The notes below the pieces were generated by a model. That model was not told the origin of the DNA, did not search any database, and saw only the letters and a program-made list of their open reading frames with translations. From a virus (lineage: Duplodnaviria > Heunggongvirae > Uroviricota > Caudoviricetes), in IMG/VR virus record IMGVR_UViG_2541047907_000002, positions 1 through 47,077 of that record: a stretch of 47,077 nt of DNA; one strand, given 5' to 3'. How positions within the stretch are numbered: the stretch's first letter is position 1; each line of letters opens with the position of its first letter. This document shows positions 11,028 through 21,633 of the stretch, piece by piece. Both the position numbers and the translations under genes were made by a program.

Positions 11028-11269
11028 AAATCCTGTATCAGGATTACGGCCCGGTGGGGCAGGTGGTTATCAGCAGTACTGTAATGGAGTTCCGGAAGCA
11101 TAACCGTGTGGTGGATGCAGTGCTGTTAGCCTGTCCGGGGATATCGGCGAGTCGTGCAGGTGTGTTTATTATGAAGACGAAGTTATATGGCAGTACAGCG
11201 TGGATAAAGAAGGCGTATCGTGTAGCGTTGCAGGAGGTAAACAGTGAGCGAATCGGCAACCATTCTTGA
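11024..11269 (+). CDS. Hypothetical protein (81 aa)
   Basis: GTG start overlapping the upstream stop (GTGA), preceded by AGGAGGG. Confidence 0.4.
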   Translation: MKILYQDYGPVGQVVISSTVMEFRKHNRVVDAVLLACPGISASRAGVFIMKTKLYGSTAWIKKAYRVALQEVNSERIGNHS

Positions 11270-11717
11270 TATGTCCTGTGGCAGTCGTATGTTCTGGTTC
11301 GATAAGAATGACGACCGGGCGATATTTAGCGATATCAGAAAAGAAGAGCACACATTGTGTGATGGACGACGGCTGATAATTAGCCCTGACCTGATAGCAT
11401 ATTTTCGTGCACTACCTTTTGCAGACGCATCTTTTTCGATGGTTGTATTCGACCCTCCGCATCTTGAGCGTGTTGGTGATAACGCCTGGATGGGAAAGAA
11501 ATATGGACGGCTAAATAAAGATACCTGGCGTGATGATTTGCGGCAGGGATTTAAAGAAGCCTTTCGTGTGTTGCAGCCATACGGCGTTCTGATTTTCAAA
11601 TGGAATGAAACGCAAATACCTGTTCGCCAGATATTGGCACTGACCGACAGAAAACCTGTTATCGGTCAACGAACAGGAAAAAACGATAAAACTCACTGGA
11701 TTATTTTTATGAAATAG
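11244..11717 (+). CDS. Small SAM-dependent methyltransferase-like protein
   Basis: 157 aa; LDMSCGSRMFWFDK (glycine-rich motif I-like) followed by VVFDPPHL (motif IV D-P-P-H) and LQPYGVLIF; GTG start preceded by GGAGGT. Confidence 0.5.
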   Translation: MSESATILDMSCGSRMFWFDKNDDRAIFSDIRKEEHTLCDGRRLIISPDLIAYFRALPFADASFSMVVFDPPHLERVGDNAWMGKKYGRLNKDTWRDDLRQGFKEAFRVLQPYGVLIFKWNETQIPVRQILALTDRKPVIGQRTGKNDKTHWIIFMK

Positions 11718-12848: not shown

Positions 12849-13148
12849 TTATAAGAAATCGGTTTCATAACTTTGCCCACCATGATAGATACCGACAATA
12901 AAGACTTTTCTGCCATCAACGGCAAAAGCAATAATCGTTCTGTGGCGGAAATGAGTTACCCGCATCCCATGGCGAATATCATCGCGTTTATTGCCCCGAT
13001 GCGGGAATGTAGAAAACCCATCAAGATAATCAAGAAGCGCATTGGCATAATTGTCAGCAATGACGTTCCCTGCTTTCTCCGTTATATATCTGTGCAGGTT
13101 GATTATTTGTTGTTCGGCCTCAGGAGTAATGATGACTTCATATGTCAT
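12849..13148 (-). CDS. ParE/RelE-family type II toxin
   Basis: 99 aa; immediately downstream of and coupled to a ParD-like gene; conserved ParE-like segments (recalled family pattern). Confidence 0.7.
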   Translation of the reverse strand: MTYEVIITPEAEQQIINLHRYITEKAGNVIADNYANALLDYLDGFSTFPHRGNKRDDIRHGMRVTHFRHRTIIAFAVDGRKVFIVGIYHGGQSYETDFL

Positions 13149-13153
13149 GCAGA

Positions 13154-13411
13154 TTACTTCCCGGATCGAATCGCGGCGCGAACCTGTGAAATGGAGCGTC
13201 CGTTGTTTGGATTTTCGCGGATAGAATCAAGAGAGGGGGCGGCTGAATGCGTTAACCACGCTTCGATTGCTTTATCGCGCTCATTCAGTGCGCGAAGCCC
13301 TTCACGAATGACCTCGCTTTCTGAAGCATAGGCACCGGAAGCCACACGGGCGCGCACCATGTCAGCCATCTCGTTAGTTAATGTAATGCTGAATTGTTGG
13401 GTTGTACGCAT
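13154..13411 (-). CDS. ParD/CopG-like ribbon-helix-helix antitoxin
   Basis: Start at ATG 13409-13411 with GAGG upstream; MRTTQQFSITLTNEMADMVRARVASG is RHH-like; 5 nt upstream of the toxin. Confidence 0.6.
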   Translation of the reverse strand: MRTTQQFSITLTNEMADMVRARVASGAYASESEVIREGLRALNERDKAIEAWLTHSAAPSLDSIRENPNNGRSISQVRAAIRSGK

Positions 13412-13492
13412 GGTAAACCTCACGGAGTAGGATAGAACACTATTCGATGATAGCACGCTGCCTGTTGACGACAACAGAAATCAGAGACAATA

Positions 13493-13826: not shown

Positions 13827-14876
13827 GTGCGGGTATTGCTTCGACCTGTTCATGTACCGGAACTTGGGCTGGTGATCCTTAAACCTGGCCGTGAATCCAT
13901 GCAGGTATTTCATAACCCTCGAGTGCTGGTGGAGCCGGAACCGAAAAGCATGCGCGGTCTGCCGTCTGGAGTCGTTCCTGCCGTTCGCCAGCCGCTGGCG
14001 GAGGATAAATCATTACTGCCATTTTTCAGTGACGAACGGGTAATTCGTGCTGCTGGCGGTGCTGGTTCACTGTCTGACTGGCTCCTGCGTCATGTTAAAT
14101 CCTGCCAGTGGCCTCATGGTGACTACCATCACAGTGAAACCGTCATACATCGCTACGGTACCGGCGCGATGGTATTGTGCTGGCACTGCGACAACCAGCT
14201 GCGTGACCAGACTTCCGAGTCGCTCGGGCAACTTGCTCATCAAAACCTGACAGCATGGATGATTGACGTCATCCGTCACGCAATAAGCGGTGTGCAGGAG
14301 CGGGAATTATCGCTGGCTGAATTGTACTGCTGGGCTGCTGTAAATGATGTAGTGGATGCCATGACCGAAAATATGGCGCGTCGAATCCTGAAGCTTCCGG
14401 GTGAAAAAATCCGCTCAGTATACCGCGAAAGCGACATCATACCGGGAGAGCAGACAGCTACCAGCATACTGAAGCAGCGCACAAAAAATATTGCGCTACC
14501 ACCTCACGCCCACCAGCAACAGAACCCACCACAGGAAAAGGCGGTGGTAAGCATCGCCGTTGATCCTGAGTCCCCGGAATCTTTCATGAGGCGACCTAAA
14601 CGTCGCCGTTGGATAAATGAGAAATACACACGCTGGGTGAAGACACAGCCGTGTGCGTGTTGTTGTCAGCCAGCCGACGATCCCCATCACCTGATTGGTC
14701 ACAGTCAGGGAGGGATGGGAACAAAGGCCCACGATATTTTCACGCTACCGTTGTGTCGGGAACATCACAACGAACTTCATGCGGATCCGCTGGCGTTCGA
14801 AGAAAAGCATGGTTCCCAGGTTGATTTAATTTTTCGTTTTCTTGATCACGCCTTTGCAACCGGCGTGCTTGGGTAA
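13827..14876 (+). CDS. DUF968/YdfU-like protein with C-terminal HNH-like Cys/His motif
   Basis: 349 aa; GTG start preceded by GGAGGT; C-terminal CACCCQPADDPHHLIGHS...CREHHNELH. Confidence 0.6.
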   Translation: MRVLLRPVHVPELGLVILKPGRESMQVFHNPRVLVEPEPKSMRGLPSGVVPAVRQPLAEDKSLLPFFSDERVIRAAGGAGSLSDWLLRHVKSCQWPHGDYHHSETVIHRYGTGAMVLCWHCDNQLRDQTSESLGQLAHQNLTAWMIDVIRHAISGVQERELSLAELYCWAAVNDVVDAMTENMARRILKLPGEKIRSVYRESDIIPGEQTATSILKQRTKNIALPPHAHQQQNPPQEKAVVSIAVDPESPESFMRRPKRRRWINEKYTRWVKTQPCACCCQPADDPHHLIGHSQGGMGTKAHDIFTLPLCREHHNELHADPLAFEEKHGSQVDLIFRFLDHAFATGVLG

Positions 14877-14888
14877 AAGAGGTTACTG

Positions 14889-15248
14889 ATGCGTATAGAG
14901 TTTGTTTTGCCTTACCCGCCGACGGTGAACACCTACTGGCGACGTCGTGGCAGCACATATTTTGTATCAAAAGCCGGTGAGCGTTATCGCCGTGATGTGG
15001 CGCTTATTGTTCGCCAGCAGCGACTGAAATTAAACCTGTCCGGAAGGCTGGCAATAAAGATTATTGCAGAGCCACCGGATAAGCGCCGTCGTGACCTGGA
15101 CAATATTCTGAAAGCACCACTGGATGCACTGACACATGCGGGGTTGCTTATCGACGACGAGCAGTTTGATGAAATCAATATTGTGCGCGGTCAGGTCGTT
15201 CCTGGTGGTCGGCTGGGGATAAAAATCACAGAACTGGAGTGCGCATGA
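14889..15248 (+). CDS. rusA: RusA-family Holliday junction resolvase
   Basis: 119 aa beginning MRIEFVLPYPPTVNTYW with later DLDNILKAPLDAL segment, typical RusA; AGAGG upstream. Confidence 0.8.
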   Translation: MRIEFVLPYPPTVNTYWRRRGSTYFVSKAGERYRRDVALIVRQQRLKLNLSGRLAIKIIAEPPDKRRRDLDNILKAPLDALTHAGLLIDDEQFDEINIVRGQVVPGGRLGIKITELECA

Positions 15249-15934
15249 ATAACCAGTATTTACAGTTTGTTCGTGAGCAACTCATGATTGCCACCACCGA
15301 TTTGAGTGGATCAACAAAAGGGCAGCTTGAGGCCTGGCAGGAGAATGCCATGTTTGATACAGGGCGTTACAGGCGTAAAAAAATCCGGTACCGCGATGAA
15401 GTGACCGGAAAAATGATAACGCTGGATAATCCACCAATCCCGGGGAAACAATCGCTGGCGAAGGGGACGTCAATTCCTCTGGTAAGTCAGGTTGAGTTTT
15501 CGACATCATCATGGCGACGGGCAGTTCTGTCTCTTGAAGAACATCATAAAACCTGGTTGTTGTGGTGTTACAGCGGAAGTATTTGCTGGGAGTATCAGAT
15601 CGCGATAACACAGTGGGTGTGGAATGAATTTAAGGCGCAATCCGGTACCAGAAAAATTGCAGGGAAAACGCTGGAGCGCCTGAAAAAATTAATCTGGCTG
15701 GCGGCACAGGATGTGAAGAGTGAGCTGGCTGGGCGTGAAACTTATGAATATCAGGAACTGGCATTACTGGCGGGTGTGACAACAAAAAACTGGTCCAAAA
15801 CATTTACTGGTCACTGGGTTGCAATGAAAGACATTTTCCACCGGCTGGATAGTGAGGCCTTATTGTTTGTGATGAGAACACGTTCAGAACAAAAGACGGC
15901 ATTTTCAAAGAAAAGTATTGCAAAAGTAGATTAA
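15245..15934 (+). CDS. Putative late-gene antiterminator Q
   Basis: 229 aa; ATGA overlap with rusA; position (after rusA, before the late/lysis region) and Cys/Trp-rich core fit the Q family. Confidence 0.6.
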   Translation: MNNQYLQFVREQLMIATTDLSGSTKGQLEAWQENAMFDTGRYRRKKIRYRDEVTGKMITLDNPPIPGKQSLAKGTSIPLVSQVEFSTSSWRRAVLSLEEHHKTWLLWCYSGSICWEYQIAITQWVWNEFKAQSGTRKIAGKTLERLKKLIWLAAQDVKSELAGRETYEYQELALLAGVTTKNWSKTFTGHWVAMKDIFHRLDSEALLFVMRTRSEQKTAFSKKSIAKVD

Positions 15935-15998
15935 AAGGCATATATTTCTTGCCAAATCTGATATTTTGCCGATTTTGTACGTGATGGCAAAGTAAGCA

Positions 15999-16023
15999 AA
16001 ACCCGCCGCCGAGCGGGTTTTTT
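15999..16023 (+). terminator. Intrinsic terminator (tR'-like), copy 1 of a repeated terminator-leader module
   Basis: Stem AAACCCGC/GCGGGTTT with 6 nt loop followed by TTTTTT; about 65 nt after the Q stop. Confidence 0.5.
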
Positions 16024-16146
16024 ATGCCTGAAAATTGGTGTAGTACGTTAAACGCGCTGGTGGTTGCGAATACTGGTCTTTCAGCTTGCTTGCTTTTTGG
16101 ACAAGAGTTATTGGTATGTCACGTTAACCAGAAAAGGAAAAAAGAC

Positions 16147-16344
16147 ATGCTAAAACAGCAGGATATGACCGAAACCGCCAGAGTGGTATTTAATGAATTA
16201 AGTGTCACCGAACCGGCGACCGTCGGGGAAATTGCGCAGAATACTTACCTTTCACGCGAACGCTGCCAGTTAATACTGACCCAGCTTGTTATGGCGGGTC
16301 TGGCAGATTATCAGTTCGGTTGTTACAGACGCCTTCCGCAGTGA
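16147..16344 (+). CDS. Small protein (65 aa), possible winged-helix regulator
   Basis: MLKQQDMTETARVVFNELSVTEPATVGEIAQNTYLSRERCQLILTQLVMAGL; a paralogous copy lies at 19791-20015. Confidence 0.45.
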   Translation: MLKQQDMTETARVVFNELSVTEPATVGEIAQNTYLSRERCQLILTQLVMAGLADYQFGCYRRLPQ

Positions 16345-16494
16345 AGGCTTTTTAATTTGTGGTAATGGGCGGCTGGTGGGTGTTAGCGGCACCTGCCAGC
16401 CATCTGCTCATGCGTTGGGATCACAAGCAAACCTCAGGCCCATCTGCTTTGCGCAAAAGCAGAATGAGCCTATCAGAGAAGTGCTTATTGATCT

Positions 16495-17547
16495 ATGGTT
16501 GATACTGTAAAAATATCCAGTTGTGAGTTGGTCAACGCTGATTGCCTGGAATTTATCCGGACCTTACCTGAAAACTCTGTCGATCTGATAGTCACGGACC
16601 CACCATACTTTAAAGTGAAACCTGAGGGCTGGGATAACCAGTGGAAGGGCGACGATGATTACCTGCAATGGCTGGACCAGTGTCTGGCGCAGTTCTGGCG
16701 GCTACTGAAGCCTGCCGGAAGTCTCTACCTGTTCTGTGGGCATCGCCTGGCATCTGATATCGAAATCATGATGCGTGAGCGCTTTAATGTGCTTAACCAT
16801 ATTATCTGGGCTAAGCCGTCCGGACGCTGGAACGGGTGCAACAAGGAAAGCCTGCGGGTGTATTTCCCTGCCACAGAGCGCATTTTGTTTGCAGAACATT
16901 ATCAGGGACCGTATCGCCCGAAAGATGATGGCTATGAGGCGAAGGGCAGGGCACTGAAACAGCATGTGATGGCCCCGCTGATTGCTTACTTTCGTGATGC
17001 GCGTGAATCACTGGGAATAACGTCAAAACAGATAGCGGAAGCTACCGGAAAGAAAAACATGGCTTCCCACTGGTTCAGTGCCAGTCAGTGGCAGCTGCCG
17101 AACAAAGGCGATTATCTGAAATTACAGGCGCTGTTTGCCCGGGTTGCCGAAGAGAAGCATCAGCGCGGTGAACTGGAAAAGCCGCACCACCAGCTGGTCA
17201 GCACATACAGTGAACTGAACCGGCAATATGCCAGTCTGCTGGAGGAGTACAAATCTCTTCGGCGTTATTTTTCCGTATCGGCTGCCGTTCCGTATACGGA
17301 TGTCTGGACGCACAAGCCCGTGCAGTATTATCCGGGCAAACATCCATGTGAAAAACCGTCGGATATGTTGCGTCAGATAATTACCGCCAGCAGTCGTCCG
17401 GGTGACCTGGTTGCGGACTTTTTTATGGGGTCGGGGTCAACAGTAAAAGCAGCACTGGCGCTGGGGCGCAGGGTATTAGGTGTTGAGCTTGAGTCAGAAC
17501 GTTTTGAGCAGACAGTGAAAGAGGTAAGTGGTCAGGGGTATATTTGA
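16495..17547 (+). CDS. Orphan DNA methyltransferase, beta-class (N6-adenine or N4-cytosine)
   Basis: 350 aa; N-terminal IVTDPPYF (motif IV) and C-terminal FFMGSGST (motif I) in the beta-class order; no restriction endonuclease candidate nearby. Confidence 0.75.
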   Translation: MVDTVKISSCELVNADCLEFIRTLPENSVDLIVTDPPYFKVKPEGWDNQWKGDDDYLQWLDQCLAQFWRLLKPAGSLYLFCGHRLASDIEIMMRERFNVLNHIIWAKPSGRWNGCNKESLRVYFPATERILFAEHYQGPYRPKDDGYEAKGRALKQHVMAPLIAYFRDARESLGITSKQIAEATGKKNMASHWFSASQWQLPNKGDYLKLQALFARVAEEKHQRGELEKPHHQLVSTYSELNRQYASLLEEYKSLRRYFSVSAAVPYTDVWTHKPVQYYPGKHPCEKPSDMLRQIITASSRPGDLVADFFMGSGSTVKAALALGRRVLGVELESERFEQTVKEVSGQGYI

Positions 17548-17667
17548 TAACAAAATCTTAAATATTTCGCTCATTTATTGTTAGCGTTCTTAATATTGGG
17601 TATTTTCAACAGTGCAGGATAACCCTGTAACGAAACTTAATCTGGTTCCATCATGAAAGTCTTTGCC

Positions 17668-17700
17668 AGTAGTCTCCGGATGGCTGGCTTTTTTTTGCGC
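17668..17700 (+). terminator. Putative intrinsic terminator downstream of the methyltransferase
   Basis: Short stem GCCAG/CTGGC followed by T8 (GCTGGCTTTTTTTT). Confidence 0.4.
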
Positions 17701-17780
17701 CAAATCGAAAATATTTTACAGTCTGATTGTGTGGGCGTATTTTTGTGATTTTTGTAACGTTTTCAGGCGTTTTGTATTAA

Positions 17781-18001
17781 TAGACTTTTTTCAGCGGCGC
17801 ATCCCGTGACGCAGCGGGGTTGAATGGCTGGTCTCCTTCACAAGCGCATACTGCGTGGAATCGCACAGCGGGTCATGGTTTAAGCCAGCCAGTGACTCAT
17901 CGGTAAAAATCCGACGCCGTCATGCTAATGACTATTCCATACTATCTGTCTGAATCCTGAGTGTCCTGAAGCCGGTAAATGAACTCTGTTACCGGCTTTT
18001 T
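17781..18001 (+). ncRNA. Candidate small RNA unit A (paralog of unit B)
   Basis: No ORF of 60 aa or more on either strand; conserved 5' block CAGCGGCGCATCCCGTGACGCAGCGGGG and internal block CCAGTGACTCATCGGTAAAAATCCGACGCC shared with unit B; ends in a 10 bp stem AAGCCGGTAA/TTACCGGCTT plus T5; upstream TGTATTAAT resembles an extended -10. Confidence 0.3.
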
Positions 18002-18189
18002 ATATCGGTATGTTGTGGAGATGCCGAAAGCCTCACATTTTTTGTGGTTGAATATCACCCTGTGAGTGAAAATAAGGTGCAGATAAAAAACTGCATGGTT
18101 TTTGCGTAATATCAAAAAAGCATTCCAGCCCCACAGGCTTTATAATTTTTTGTGATAGCCATAACTTTTCAGAATGTTCTGTGTTTTGT

Positions 18190-18400
18190 AGACTTTTTAA
18201 AGCGGCGCATCCCGTGATGCAGCGGGGCTGAGTGGTCAGGGGTTCCTTCAGATGTACAATTCACAGAAACACTCAGTGGGCCATGGTATTTGGCTGCCAG
18301 TGACTCATCGGTAAAAATCCGACGCCGCTGCTCCTTGTTCTTCACATGGTTTTCTTAGCGTATTTTAAGCCGGTTGATAAACTCCACTTCCGGCTTTCTT
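18190..18400 (+). ncRNA. Candidate small RNA unit B (paralog of unit A)
   Basis: Same two conserved blocks as unit A with divergent middle and 3' parts; ends in stem AAGCCGG/CCGGCTT followed by a T-run. Confidence 0.3.
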
Positions 18401-18754
18401 TTTTCAGTATATTACGGAGACTTAAGGTTTCTCTTTCAATCAGGTCTGATACGACTCGCAGGTGCAGGATTCGTTTAGAAGAACACCATGTAAACGCCCT
18501 TCAGCTCAGGGGCGTTTACCGGGAGGCATTTAATGCCATATGTGAGGTGACAAATCAGATAACACGCGCGTCATGGGAAAAAACGGTTAAGCAATTCCAT
18601 GACACTCTGGTGGTTCGGTTTGACATTGAAGAGGCATGGGCGGAGCGGCAGTTAAAAAAGGTAACCAGATAACAAGGTTGATTTTTCCGGAATCTGTGGT
18701 AAATTCACCCTAACGATGGGCGTTTTATGCCTGACGTTAGAAGAATTTTTACAG

Positions 18755-18776
18755 CCCGCCATAGAGCGGGTTTTTT
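18755..18776 (+). terminator. Intrinsic terminator, truncated copy 3 of the terminator-leader module
   Basis: Stem CCCGC/GCGGG followed by TTTTTT; next ~45 nt resemble the leaders after the terminators at 15999 and 19647. Confidence 0.4.
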
Positions 18777-18911
18777 GTGCCCGAAAAGCGGTGCATAACG
18801 TTAAACGTGATGGCGATTGTGCAATGAGTTTCTCCTGCTCTGAAGTCTCTTGACTGCATGGAATCTCCTTTGTTATGTAAGGTGAGTCAATGTTTTTAAA
18901 TTGTTAGAGAT

Positions 18912-19631
18912 ATGGGTATGGATGACAGCACTCTACTGAGGAACTCTTCACTTTTTATTGCTTATATGGGCTGTCTTGGATGGGGAAGCGCTTATTTCTA
19001 TGGATGGGGTACTTCCTTTTACTATGGCTTTCCATGGTGGGTTGTCGGGGCTGGCGTTGATGATGTGGCCCGAAGTTTGTTTTATGCAGTTACAGTTATC
19101 GTTATATTCCTTATTGGATGGGGAGTTGGTATTGTTTTCTTTTTAGGTATAAAACAAAAAAACAATATACAGAATTTGAGTTTTATCAGACTTTTTCTGG
19201 CAATATTGCTGCTTTTTATTCCACCCGTTCTGGAGTTTTCGGTAATTCATCAGTTCGTTGAGCCAGATGTACTGATTTTTTGTGTTATTGCGGCCTTTAC
19301 AATTACGCTTTTTATCAGGTCAGGAAGAAGGCTTATTTCAGTCAAATGCTTTTCGGAAGTGTCTTTTATTCGCCATCACCGAATTGAGTTTATGATGGCT
19401 GGATTCATGATTTATTTCTGGACATTTTCTCTTATTGCCGGTTGGTACAAACCCCAGTTTAAGAGGGAGTATCAGGCGATCCACTATGAGAATGTCTGGT
19501 ATTACGTTCTTGCACGCTATGATGATCGTCTGGTTTTATCTAAATCGTACAGGCACGGTAGTACGAATTTCGTTATACTTAATAGCGCAAATACAGATAA
19601 TTTTGAAATTAACATTGTCAGAGTGCGTTAA
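18912..19631 (+). CDS. Multi-pass membrane protein of unknown function
   Basis: 239 aa with several long hydrophobic segments and aromatic/Gly-rich stretches; sequence looks AT-richer than the flanking phage genes by inspection. Confidence 0.5.
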   Translation: MGMDDSTLLRNSSLFIAYMGCLGWGSAYFYGWGTSFYYGFPWWVVGAGVDDVARSLFYAVTVIVIFLIGWGVGIVFFLGIKQKNNIQNLSFIRLFLAILLLFIPPVLEFSVIHQFVEPDVLIFCVIAAFTITLFIRSGRRLISVKCFSEVSFIRHHRIEFMMAGFMIYFWTFSLIAGWYKPQFKREYQAIHYENVWYYVLARYDDRLVLSKSYRHGSTNFVILNSANTDNFEINIVRVR

Positions 19632-19790
19632 AATCTCCTGAGTAATACCCGCCGTTGAGCGGTTTTTTTTATGCTCCAAAAGCGGTGTGGTATATTAAAC
19701 GCGCTGGCGGTTGCGAATACCGGTTTTCAGCTCGCTGGCTTTTTCGACAAGATTATTGGTATGTCACGTTATCCTGAAAAGGTAAAAGAC

Positions 19791-20015
19791 ATGTTAAAAC
19801 AGCGGGATATGACAGAAACCGCCAGATTTGTGTTTAATGAGTTAAGCGTCAGCGAACCCCCGACGGTCGGGGATAGTGCGCAGAATGCTTACCTTCCACG
19901 AGAACGCTGTCAGTTACTCCTAACTCAGCTTGTCATAGCTGGGCTGATGAGTGTTAGCGGCACCTGTCAGTCATTTGCTTATGTGTTGATGAGAATTTAC
20001 TTTTTGGGGCTATAA
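19791..20015 (+). CDS. Paralog of the 65 aa small protein, with an altered C-terminus
   Basis: First ~48 residues closely match the protein at 16147-16344; an apparent ~78 bp deletion relative to copy 1 fuses the reading frame to downstream sequence; preceded by terminator-leader copy 2 (about 19647-19668). Confidence 0.4.
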   Translation: MLKQRDMTETARFVFNELSVSEPPTVGDSAQNAYLPRERCQLLLTQLVIAGLMSVSGTCQSFAYVLMRIYFLGL

Positions 20016-20051: not shown

Positions 20052-20765
20052 ATGGATGTTGTCTGTTCAGTTATCATGGTTTGCTCCCCAATTAATATTT
20101 TTCTTGAAAAGGATACGTTGTCACTTAAGCCCGGCTCAATCGTTCTGGCCACCAAATGCATCAGGGAGCTTTTCCTTATGCATTATGGCAAAGTTAAAAT
20201 TGTCGATATAAGCCATTCTATAGTAAGTCAATATCTGGAAAGCCAGCATAAGCTGACAAGAGGTCCTCTGACTGACATTCCGCTTTACTTGTTGCTGGAC
20301 CCCAACAATCCTGCGTTGGCTGCGGCTTTAATTACCAGCCAGAGATTTTCCGGAGAGATCACGGATATGTTTCTTATGATGGCCTGCCTGTCGCTGTTTG
20401 AATCAGATGAACGGATGTCATTATTTTTAATTGGATGTGTATCCAGTATAAGTGTCAAAGTCAGAGCGATAATTCAAACAGATATATCAGCAAGCTGGAC
20501 GCTTGGTGCGATTGCTCTACAGTTGCATATGAGTGAGAGCTTGTTAAAGAAAAAACTCAAGGATGAAGGTCTCAGGTTCAGTAATTTGTTACTTGAGGAA
20601 CGGATGCGGGTTGCTGTAAATATGTTATGTTCCCGGCATGGATATGGACAGGCTCTAGCAGAAAAATGCGGTTATTCAAGTAGGTCCTACTTTATCTCTG
20701 TATTTCACCGCTATTATGGCTTCCCGCCAGACAGATATGTATCTATGCAAAGGCTTGATTTTTGA
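20052..20765 (+). CDS. AraC-family transcriptional regulator
   Basis: 237 aa; C-terminal double-HTH region WTLGAIALQLHMSESLLKKKLKDEG...GYSSRSYFISVFHRYYGFPPDRY typical of AraC/XylS. Confidence 0.7.
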   Translation: MDVVCSVIMVCSPINIFLEKDTLSLKPGSIVLATKCIRELFLMHYGKVKIVDISHSIVSQYLESQHKLTRGPLTDIPLYLLLDPNNPALAAALITSQRFSGEITDMFLMMACLSLFESDERMSLFLIGCVSSISVKVRAIIQTDISASWTLGAIALQLHMSESLLKKKLKDEGLRFSNLLLEERMRVAVNMLCSRHGYGQALAEKCGYSSRSYFISVFHRYYGFPPDRYVSMQRLDF

Positions 20766-20792: not shown

Positions 20793-20868
20793 GGCCCTTT
20801 AGCTCAGTGGTGAGAGCGAGCGACTCATAATCGCCAGGTCGCTGGTTCAAATCCAGCAAGGGCCACCA
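20793..20868 (+). tRNA. tRNA with CAU anticodon, ileX-like (Ile2/lysidine type)
   Basis: Hand-folded cloverleaf: acceptor GGCCCTT/AAGGGCC, D-stem GCTC/GAGC, anticodon loop CTCATAA, T-loop TTCAAAT, 3' CCA; very similar to E. coli ileX as recalled. Confidence 0.8.
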
Positions 20869-20869
20869 A

Positions 20870-20946
20870 CCGCCACTAGCTCATCAGGAAAGAGCATCAA
20901 CCTTCTAAGTTGACGGCGCGAGGTTCGAGTCCTCGGTGGTGGGCCA
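20870..20946 (+). tRNA. tRNA-Arg (UCU anticodon)
   Basis: Hand-folded: acceptor CCGCCAC/GTGGTGG (one G-U pair), anticodon loop CTTCTAA, T-arm CGAGG-TTCGAGT-CCTCG, 3' CCA; unusual C1 start. Confidence 0.6.
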
Positions 20947-20948
20947 GT

Positions 20949-21024
<76 letters not shown>

Positions 21025-21027
21025 TAT

Positions 21028-21102
<75 letters not shown>

Positions 21103-21449
21103 ACATTTGCAAAAGCCTTATTGCAGCACTGGCGTATTTTTTATTACGTGGGAGCAGGGAAGGCATCCTGTTCTCTGGCTAAGATTTTGGGCCAGGTTAG
21201 CCTCAGTGCTGGATTTTTTACGACAGCAGAATGGTGCATTATCGGTGGAGATTTTGTTTTTCCTGGCAGGGGCGGTGATGCATCATTCTGGTGTTGTAAA
21301 TAACACTGTCGGGGTGTTCCTCAGAGCGAGGGTGGTTAAAAGAGTCGGTTTAGCGGGAAATCACAGTATTCATACAGGACGGAATACTTCGGGAGGCACC
21401 CGACACCTCGGTTTTATTACAATTAAGAATGTATCTCTTGCATTGACCA

Positions 21450-21474
21450 ACCGCCGTATCCGGCGGTTTTTTTA
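21450..21474 (+). terminator. Intrinsic terminator downstream of the tRNA array
   Basis: Stem ACCGCCG/CGGCGGT with 4 nt loop followed by T7. Confidence 0.5.
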
Positions 21475-21633
21475 TTCGATTTCTTCATGGTTCGCTATTG
21501 TGGACCTTTTCCACGTATTTTCTGGCGGTTATTATGACGGCTTGTTTCTTTGTTCATAAGAGGATTGATGCTGTGATCTCTTATGCAGATATCAGAGCAA
21601 AACAGGCCGAAATTCTGAAGGCTGAGCAGGAAT

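Follow-up and report, generated by a model that had tools for sequence, protein, structure and literature searches.

M.EcoGII is a 349-aa beta-class enzyme encoded by a prophage of Escherichia coli O104:H4, and the enzyme of phage 1720a-02 has been named as very similar to it (Murray et al., PMC5778455). By experiment, M.EcoGII is a non-specific adenine methyltransferase: in vitro, it methylates up to 99% of the deoxyadenosines in duplex DNA, and it blocks many restriction enzymes (PMC5778455). [quoted passage not shown] The protection of phage DNA by enzymes of this type stands in the literature as a proposal rather than a demonstration (PMC5778455). Charged interdomain linkers have been proposed as the cause of sequence-independent binding; all reconstructed ancestors methylated both DNA and RNA, and M.EcoGII, Anc291, and SUPREM displayed no sequence motif on RNA (PMC11551740). 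In addition, in a REBASE-based inventory of O111 STEC (PMC6602927), homologues with 92 to 93% similarity carry the label "nonspecific," and the lysogens that contain them had no additional methylated motif.

We analyzed a window of 47,077 nt, comprising positions 1 to 47,077 of the viral record IMGVR_UViG_2541047907_000002. It is a lambdoid prophage without stx, a mosaic of the Rac/Stx-phage kind. The flanks share 90 to 98% identity with prophages of E. coli, and in one related prophage of this species the genes run from the exonuclease through the RacR-type repressor region and the DnaT-like O and P genes to the nin-like genes (which include ParE/ParD, DUF968, RusA, and Q), followed by the methyltransferase and then by the holins and lysis genes. 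A six-frame scan of the window for [DNS]PP[YFWH] found this tetrapeptide in only two credible genes, the open reading frames (ORFs) at positions 16495 to 17547 and 11244 to 11717, and no further credible gene carrying an amino-methyltransferase motif IV.

The ORF at positions 16495 to 17547 lies on the plus strand, starts with ATG, and encodes 350 aa. The first-pass annotation of this DNA had described a protein of this length with TDPPY near its N terminus and FFMGSGST near its C terminus, which is the beta-class order. This description was confirmed: DPPY occupies residues 35 to 38 (within TDPPY) and FFMGSGST occupies residues 309 to 316, so that motif IV precedes motif I. Against the PF01555 (N6_N4_Mtase) profile, the protein scored 148 bits (cutoff, 26.7; E = 4.9e-43) over residues 29 to 341. 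The match extends over profile positions 1 to 220 of 221 and is interrupted by a central insertion of about 90 residues. Both the motif order and the significant PF01555 match are those of beta-class N6-adenine/N4-cytosine methyltransferases. All NCBIfam matches of the protein fell well under the respective equivalog cutoffs. Among enzymes of solved structure, the beta-class proteins 8urk/9c3u (deposited as "Methyltransferase"), M.RsrI, CcrM, and M.MboIIA matched the catalytic halves with E values of 1e-15 to 5e-25, in two separate stretches corresponding to motifs IV to VI and motifs X to I. The likeness is confined to these halves, whereas for the central residues 120 to 280, which hold the recognition domain and the linkers, no solved relative was found. 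The M.EcoGII family has a four-helix HTH recognition domain in the predicted structure; for the 350-aa protein, an AF2 model built from a shallow alignment placed helices across residues 146 to 254, with a pLDDT of 64, a confidence too low for fold comparison.

A Type II restriction-modification system has a cognate endonuclease gene next to the methyltransferase, and the 350-aa gene has no such neighbor. Around it we found Q (PF06323), an ORF of the phrog_331 family, a Q fragment, a membrane protein (phrog_1521), a second phrog_331 copy, and an AraC-like protein. The Q fragment is a 108-aa ORF in which the last 50 residues alone match antiterminator Q (PF03589). The DUF968/HNH-like protein (positions 13827 to 14876) and RusA (14889 to 15248), both upstream of Q, are standard lambdoid nin-region genes, and their order is unchanged in prophages with or without the methyltransferase. 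No restriction endonuclease lies beside the methyltransferase, and no tested neighbor matched any PADLOC model, in agreement with the earlier statement that no endonuclease-like ORF is adjacent. On the evidence of its motifs and neighbors, the prophage-encoded 350-aa protein is an orphan DNA amino-methyltransferase of the beta class.

To place the protein within the beta class, we aligned it with M.EcoGII. The two are identical at 303 of 345 positions (88%) over their full length; since the reference, the sequence printed in Table S1 of PMC11551740, is a machine-read copy with a few obvious reading errors, the true identity could be a little higher. Using the domain boundaries given in PMC11551740, we found 93% identity in the N-terminal Rossmann part, 96% (24/25) in the charged linker at residues 135 to 159, 88.5% (69/78) in the recognition domain at residues 160 to 237, 77% (17/22) in the second linker at residues 238 to 259, and 80% in the C-terminal Rossmann part. 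The similarity is thus of full length and includes the recognition domain, and both interdomain linkers are kept, as in the M.EcoGII family. About 42 aligned positions differ, of which 9 are in the recognition domain. One of these is the lysine at residue 204, where at least 90% of relatives have glutamate. The methyltransferase of phage 1720a-02 is 89% identical to the 350-aa protein. The reconstructed ancestor Anc284/SUPREM is 69% identical to it. This ancestor, still largely non-specific, is therefore much farther from M.EcoGII than the 350-aa protein is.

The resemblance goes beyond the alignment. Like the 350-aa protein, M.EcoGII and M.EcoGI of the E. coli O104:H4 C227-11 prophages (GenBank EGT69837.1) have the beta motif order, are located in prophages, and have no restriction partner, and M.EcoGII is 349 aa long compared to 350 aa in the window. 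Besides the substitutions, the window differs in that its prophage lacks stx and in that its cassette adjoins a Q of the PF06323 type. These comparisons identify the 350-aa protein as an orthologue-level relative of M.EcoGII and its gene as a known, ordinary kind of prophage gene. The kinship with M.EcoGII, and hence the expected non-specificity, had been missed in the first-pass annotation.

By its sequence, the 350-aa protein should methylate adenine in any context. This expectation is drawn from two observations, the 88% identity to M.EcoGII and the retention of non-specificity in an ancestor that is only about 69% identical. An alternative would be an orphan Type II methyltransferase of the conventional, site-specific sort with a motif of its own, and the RefSeq/NCBI name of the protein, "site-specific DNA-methyltransferase," says as much. 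However, this name is generic, and the NCBIfam matches are far under the equivalog cutoffs. Specificity can change in the wider family, as illustrated by M.PflMI (CCANNNNNTGG), the nearest M.EcoGII relative with confirmed site specificity, considered here from its description in PMC11551740. M.PflMI is a more distant protein of the same REBASE cluster as M.EcoGII, and its predicted fold, recognition domain included, is similar (PMC11551740). The nine recognition-domain substitutions could be read in the same direction. Conversely, the recognition domain as a whole remains close to that of M.EcoGII, and the charged linker that is missing in M.PflMI is retained in the 350-aa protein. The ancestor at about 69% identity, still largely non-specific, and the REBASE-based annotation of the 92 to 93%-similar homologues as non-specific (PMC6602927) also argue against a dedicated recognition site, which we regard as improbable. 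The first-pass annotation had suggested an HMM or REBASE comparison to assign specificity. The profile match and the alignment did identify a PF01555 DNA methyltransferase of the M.EcoGII type, but the assignment of a specificity is probably moot, as sequence independence is expected.

A sequence-independent adenine methylase might also have RNA, in the form of phage or host transcripts, as its main substrate in vivo instead of DNA. M.EcoGII does methylate rA in vitro, in RNA as well as in DNA:RNA hybrids. Nevertheless, its initial rate is about 100-fold lower on RNA than on DNA (PMC11551740, Table S3), and methylation of DNA in vivo is near-complete, so that we consider RNA a very unlikely main target.

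The position of the gene suggests when the enzyme would be made. In lambdoid and Stx phages, PR' is a constitutive promoter whose transcription is stopped at tR' in lysogens, and readthrough takes place only once Q has been made (PMC7547250). The window shows a corresponding arrangement on the plus strand, in which the promoter and terminators were called by consensus matches. The gene for the late antiterminator Q (15239 to 15934; PF06323 Phage_antiter_Q, E = 1.6e-92) is directly upstream of the methyltransferase cassette. Its end overlaps a putative PR'-like sigma-70 promoter (15918 to 15946) composed of TTGCAA, a 17-nt spacer, and TATATT, with 9 of 12 consensus matches. It is followed by a tR'-like intrinsic terminator (AAAACCCGCCGCCGAGCGGGTTTTTT; 15998 to 16023), which the terminator scan and RNA folding resolved as a strong hairpin and then a T-run. 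The first gene past tR' is a small winged-helix (wHTH) ORF of phrog_331 (16148 to 16344; E = 3.7e-46). Between this ORF and the methyltransferase, the terminator scan detected a second terminator-like hairpin with a T-run (16331 to 16348). The small ORF corresponds to a mechanical ORF at 16024 to 16344, for which the ATG at 16148 is the likely start. A 65-aa gene is called at this position in public contigs, and the RefSeq name is TrmB family.

We compared this arrangement with those of Stx phages at the nucleotide level. A "DNA methylase" located between Q and stx was matched in Stx2 phages, phiP27, and phage 1720a-02, which have the same tR'-small ORF-methyltransferase cassette, at 88 to 91% identity across the stretch that opens with the terminator and closes with the methyltransferase gene. 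In Stx phages, the methyltransferase slot is upstream of stx, and in phage 1720a-02, with which the tR'-like hairpin of the window aligns, it is upstream of stx2. The homology of the window to Stx phages and phiP27 begins at about position 15999, at the tR'-like hairpin, and extends to near 17528. As the homology starts at this hairpin, the conserved portable unit consists of the terminator, the small wHTH ORF, and the methyltransferase gene, with Q and the promoter being exchangeable. Downstream of the methyltransferase the two arrangements part: the phages named above carry stx, while the window continues with a repeat region poor in ORFs, a fragment of Q, and a second late-region start. The small ORFs between positions 17548 and 18345 had no PHROG match.

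Given the PR'/tR'/Q logic and the position of the gene, the methyltransferase should be a late gene that is silent in the lysogen, with its promoter, the function of its terminator, and its timing deduced by analogy. A late gene would agree with the reports that lysogens do not express M.EcoGI or M.EcoGII and that attempted constitutive expression of M.EcoGII was harmful. The first-pass annotation had offered two roles for the enzyme, anti-restriction or epigenetic. The latter would have the enzyme regulate host or prophage genes in the lysogen, as other prophage orphan methyltransferases do, for example, PamA in Staphylococcus aureus (PMC12435837). However, the gene lies behind the tR'-like and the second terminator-like hairpins, and a consensus scan of positions 16350 to 16494 found no sigma-70-like site from which it could be transcribed on its own. 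Moreover, its relatives M.EcoGI and M.EcoGII are silent in the lysogen, attempts at constitutive M.EcoGII expression were harmful (PMC5778455), and lysogens with homologues show no extra motif (PMC6602927). An epigenetic role is in our judgment scarcely credible, and of the two roles it is anti-restriction that we retain as the best reading, by analogy with the protection proposed for M.EcoGII-type enzymes.

We consider it quite probable that the prophage encodes a late-made, sequence-independent m6A methylase of the M.EcoGII type, which shields progeny phage DNA and is silent in the lysogen, and, separately, an early minimal amino-methyltransferase of 157 aa. According to our model, the 350-aa protein would be a SAM-dependent N6-adenine methyltransferase of the beta class, probably dimeric, in which a helical HTH-type recognition domain and charged linkers would hold nucleic acid without reading its sequence. 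As the second ORF of the late operon, placed behind Q, the PR'-like promoter, the tR'-like terminator, and the second hairpin, its gene would be off in the lysogen, and the harm seen when constitutive expression was tried with M.EcoGII would be avoided. Upon induction, Q would antiterminate transcription, and the enzyme would be made during phage DNA replication and packaging. With the resulting blanket of m6A, the progeny genomes would be shielded in the next host from most of its adenine-sensitive restriction systems.

Of 5,426 complete E. coli genomes, 2,514 contained homologues of the 350-aa protein, and a single genome held as many as five copies. In public assemblies, at least 72 blocks encode the exact protein, in the same DUF968-RusA-Q-small ORF-methyltransferase context. 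Thousands of enterobacterial prophage genes named "site-specific DNA-methyltransferase" are of the M.EcoGII type and are expected to be non-specific. The value of the main gene lies in this corrected annotation, together with a portable cassette that starts at tR' and is the same as the one found ahead of stx in Shiga-toxin phages. The correction bears on the reading of prophage methylomes, on restriction evasion by induced phages, and on the host range of Stx-like phages.

The second gene with a motif IV tetrapeptide (11244 to 11717, plus strand) starts with GTG, 6 nt past an AGGAGG ribosome-binding site, and encodes 157 aa. It is located between the replication genes (DnaT-like O and P) and Q. 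The compact DPPH methyltransferase-like protein reported earlier from the nin-like region was thus found as described. It has a motif I-like ILDMSCGS at residues 7 to 14 and DPPH at residues 70 to 73. Structure prediction gave, with high confidence (pLDDT of 94), a class I SAM-methyltransferase fold with the glycine-rich motif I. Secondary-structure elements extend over the full 157 residues, no segment stands apart with low confidence, and the model contains no target recognition domain of the kind that marks sequence-specific DNA methyltransferases. Members of the family are usually 157 to 162 aa long, and the DPPH motif, an amino-methyltransferase motif IV, is kept in 258 of 268 homologues.

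Profile searches gave general labels for this protein. Nothing in Pfam exceeded its cutoff (Methyltransf_11 reached 18.7 bits against a cutoff of 21.2), no NCBIfam family was matched, and sequence and profile searches of the PDB returned weak generic methyltransferase matches only. PGAP names the protein "class I SAM-dependent methyltransferase." At the level of annotation labels, it matched PHROG 954 ("DNA methyltransferase") with an E value of 1.2e-84 and the PADLOC models MTase_II and orphan MTase with E values of 2e-71 and 8e-48, respectively. An exhaustive search collected 1,881 cluster representatives at an E value of ≤0.001. The family spans temperate phages of Proteobacteria, Firmicutes, Actinobacteria, and Bacteroidetes at 46 to 65% identity, including Gordonia phage Pickett gp57 (64% identical to the 157-aa protein), Listeria phage A118 ORF50 (52%), Vibrio phage X29 (51%), and Streptococcus phage T12 (47%). 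In all phages examined, the gene is part of the early replication/recombination module and has no adjoining endonuclease. Literature searches for the DPPH motif, for A118 ORF50, and for recognition-domain-less methyltransferases found no characterized member.

To relate the family to known enzymes, we aligned family profiles with hhalign. The 157-aa family aligned with the M.EcoGII family with 94% probability (E = 8.6e-8) over 67 columns, beginning at the strand ahead of motif IV and ending with motif VI, and 20 of 57 family members matched PF01555 weakly. From these alignments and the position of motif I before motif IV, we classify the protein as a gamma-order amino-methyltransferase without a recognition domain and as distant kin of the DNA amino-methyltransferases. 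It most likely acts on a nucleic-acid base, with DNA as the leading candidate. The first-pass annotation had proposed that the prophage may carry two DNA-modification functions; the small protein is indeed amino-methyltransferase-like, but its action on DNA is no more than plausible by sequence, and the allele in the window carries the substitution D53Y.

The protein might instead act on RNA, for instance on guanine-N2 or adenine-N6 of a tRNA or rRNA, or its methyl acceptor might be a small molecule or a glutamine in a protein. The hhalign link of motifs IV to VI to the M.EcoGII family, the weak PF01555 matches, and the strong matches to PADLOC models labeled as Type II or orphan methyltransferases argue against such a substrate, as does the invariable location of the gene in the replication/recombination module of temperate phages. 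Moreover, small phage methyltransferases of 141 to 237 aa exist in another family, PF05869, and one of them methylates DNA. This is S. aureus PamA, a protein of 141 aa with an NPPY motif that acts on GATC (PMC12435837). PamA is probably a PF05869-type enzyme, and we use it here as an analogy. We regard a substrate other than a DNA base as unlikely, although it keeps appreciable weight.

PF05869, which comprises T1 Dam, the Dam proteins of VT2-Sa and 1720a-02, the YfdM fragment, and probably PamA, resembles the 157-aa family in that its members are likewise short early-region phage methyltransferases with the motif IV tetrapeptide near residues 65 to 90. In contrast, this tetrapeptide is NPPY in PF05869 and DPPH in the 157-aa family, and the two families are not homologous. 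Kinship with phage T1 Dam, itself a PF05869 protein (E = 1.7e-70), was rejected at an hhalign probability of 0.1%. The same holds for E. coli K-12 YfdM as a fragment of the 157-aa family (0.2%); YfdM ends in NPPY, like PF05869 proteins. None of the 57 members of the 157-aa family matched PF05869 at an E value of ≤1.

Through the 157-aa gene, the analysis leads to a family of phage methyltransferases that is very widespread and has no specific Pfam match; this family alone holds some potential for novelty. Rather speculatively, the DPPH family may represent unstudied recognition-domain-less methyltransferases whose substrate is not an ordinary DNA site. Its members could be sequence-independent, or nearly sequence-independent, nucleic-acid methylases, or could act on RNA or another universal molecule, possibly in counter-defense.

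Finally, we examined residue 53 of the 157-aa protein. In class I methyltransferases, the aspartate of motif III contacts the adenine of SAM. Position 53 aligns with this aspartate of the motif III "GD," and its counterpart in the M.EcoGII family is the invariant Asp16. The protein of the window has tyrosine at this position, where 94% of distant and 99% of close relatives have aspartate; the alternatives among relatives are serine and asparagine, never tyrosine. Asp53 is also present in the nearest allele, which comes from E. coli and is 98% identical, and homologues in four other phyla have it as well. The allele of the window thus lacks the conserved acidic residue of the SAM site. That the gene is weakened or inactive in this prophage lineage is a real possibility, suggested by the near-invariance of the aspartate and its alignment with motif III, to which we nonetheless give somewhat less than even weight. 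The ORF is otherwise intact and has a strong ribosome-binding site, and the loss of one hydrogen bond to SAM need not end activity. Furthermore, public assemblies contain the exact Y53 protein in no fewer than 57 blocks, indicating that Y53 is a stably inherited allele and not a sequencing error.

The start of the late region occurs three times in tandem in the window. The tR'-like hairpin, together with a block of about 60 nt on its 3' side, was found in three copies (15998-16080, 18753-18833, and 19651-19727) that are 68 to 83% identical. The phrog_331 gene region, which encodes a small winged-helix protein, is present in two copies (16133-16302 and 19777-19946; 83% identical). This tandem arrangement suggests that the cassette formed by the terminator, the small ORF, and the DNA methyltransferase (MTase) gene recombined ahead of another late-region start.

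An ORF of 108 aa at 18346-18672 matches antiterminator Q (PF03589, phrog_127) over its last ~50 residues only. In other E. coli prophages, a full-length Q of the PF03589 type is followed by the same block as in the window, consisting of genes for a membrane protein, a TrmB-like protein, and an HTH protein and then tRNA genes. Because a complete Q heads this block in those prophages, the ORF probably represents the surviving 3' part of a second Q gene. The gene for the predicted membrane protein (239 aa, 18912-19631) lies after the second terminator copy and before the third; the protein is assigned to phrog_1521, and its precomputed Pfam match is PF27470 ("TfpB"). Directly downstream of an AraC-like gene (20052-20765) lie four tRNA genes, Met-CAT, Arg-TCT, Thr-TGT, and Gly-TCC (20793-21102). 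In phage 1720a-02, a Stx phage carrying the same MTase cassette, stx2 is located downstream of the methylase; in contrast, stx was not found downstream of the MTase gene in the window.

The approximately 800 nt that follow the MTase gene (17548-18345) contain few ORFs, and no PHROG match was found for the small ones. This stretch carries an imperfect duplication, the copies of which (17781-17919 and 18189-18327) are 408 nt apart and 84 to 89% identical. Matches to the Rfam family STnc100 at 17763-17955 and 21283-21477 were below threshold (27 bits versus a gathering score of 47).

RefSeq and NCBI label the family of the 350-aa MTase (16495-17547) "site-specific DNA-methyltransferase," whereas the family's characterized member is explicitly non-specific. 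Every NCBIfam match of the protein fell far under the equivalog cutoff.

The small DPPH methyltransferase (11244-11717) has a homologue, gp57, in Gordonia phage Pickett (L013, 918-2968). The gp57 gene shares a 4-nt overlap with the end of the gene for gp56, a C5-cytosine DNA methylase of 525 aa (PF00145). This overlap hints that, in some phages, the small enzyme accompanies genuine DNA methylases. As annotated, many enterobacterial homologues (P0131, P0159, P0241, and others) are 248 to 255 aa long and have a C-terminal extension of about 90 residues. Other homologues are annotated with N-terminal extensions of 40 to 80 residues, some of them cysteine-rich. A counterpart of the homologues' extension is absent from the window. 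Also set within the nin-like region, on the opposite (minus) strand, is a toxin-antitoxin pair (12849-13474) composed of a ParE-type toxin (12849-13148) and a ParD-type antitoxin (13154-13474).
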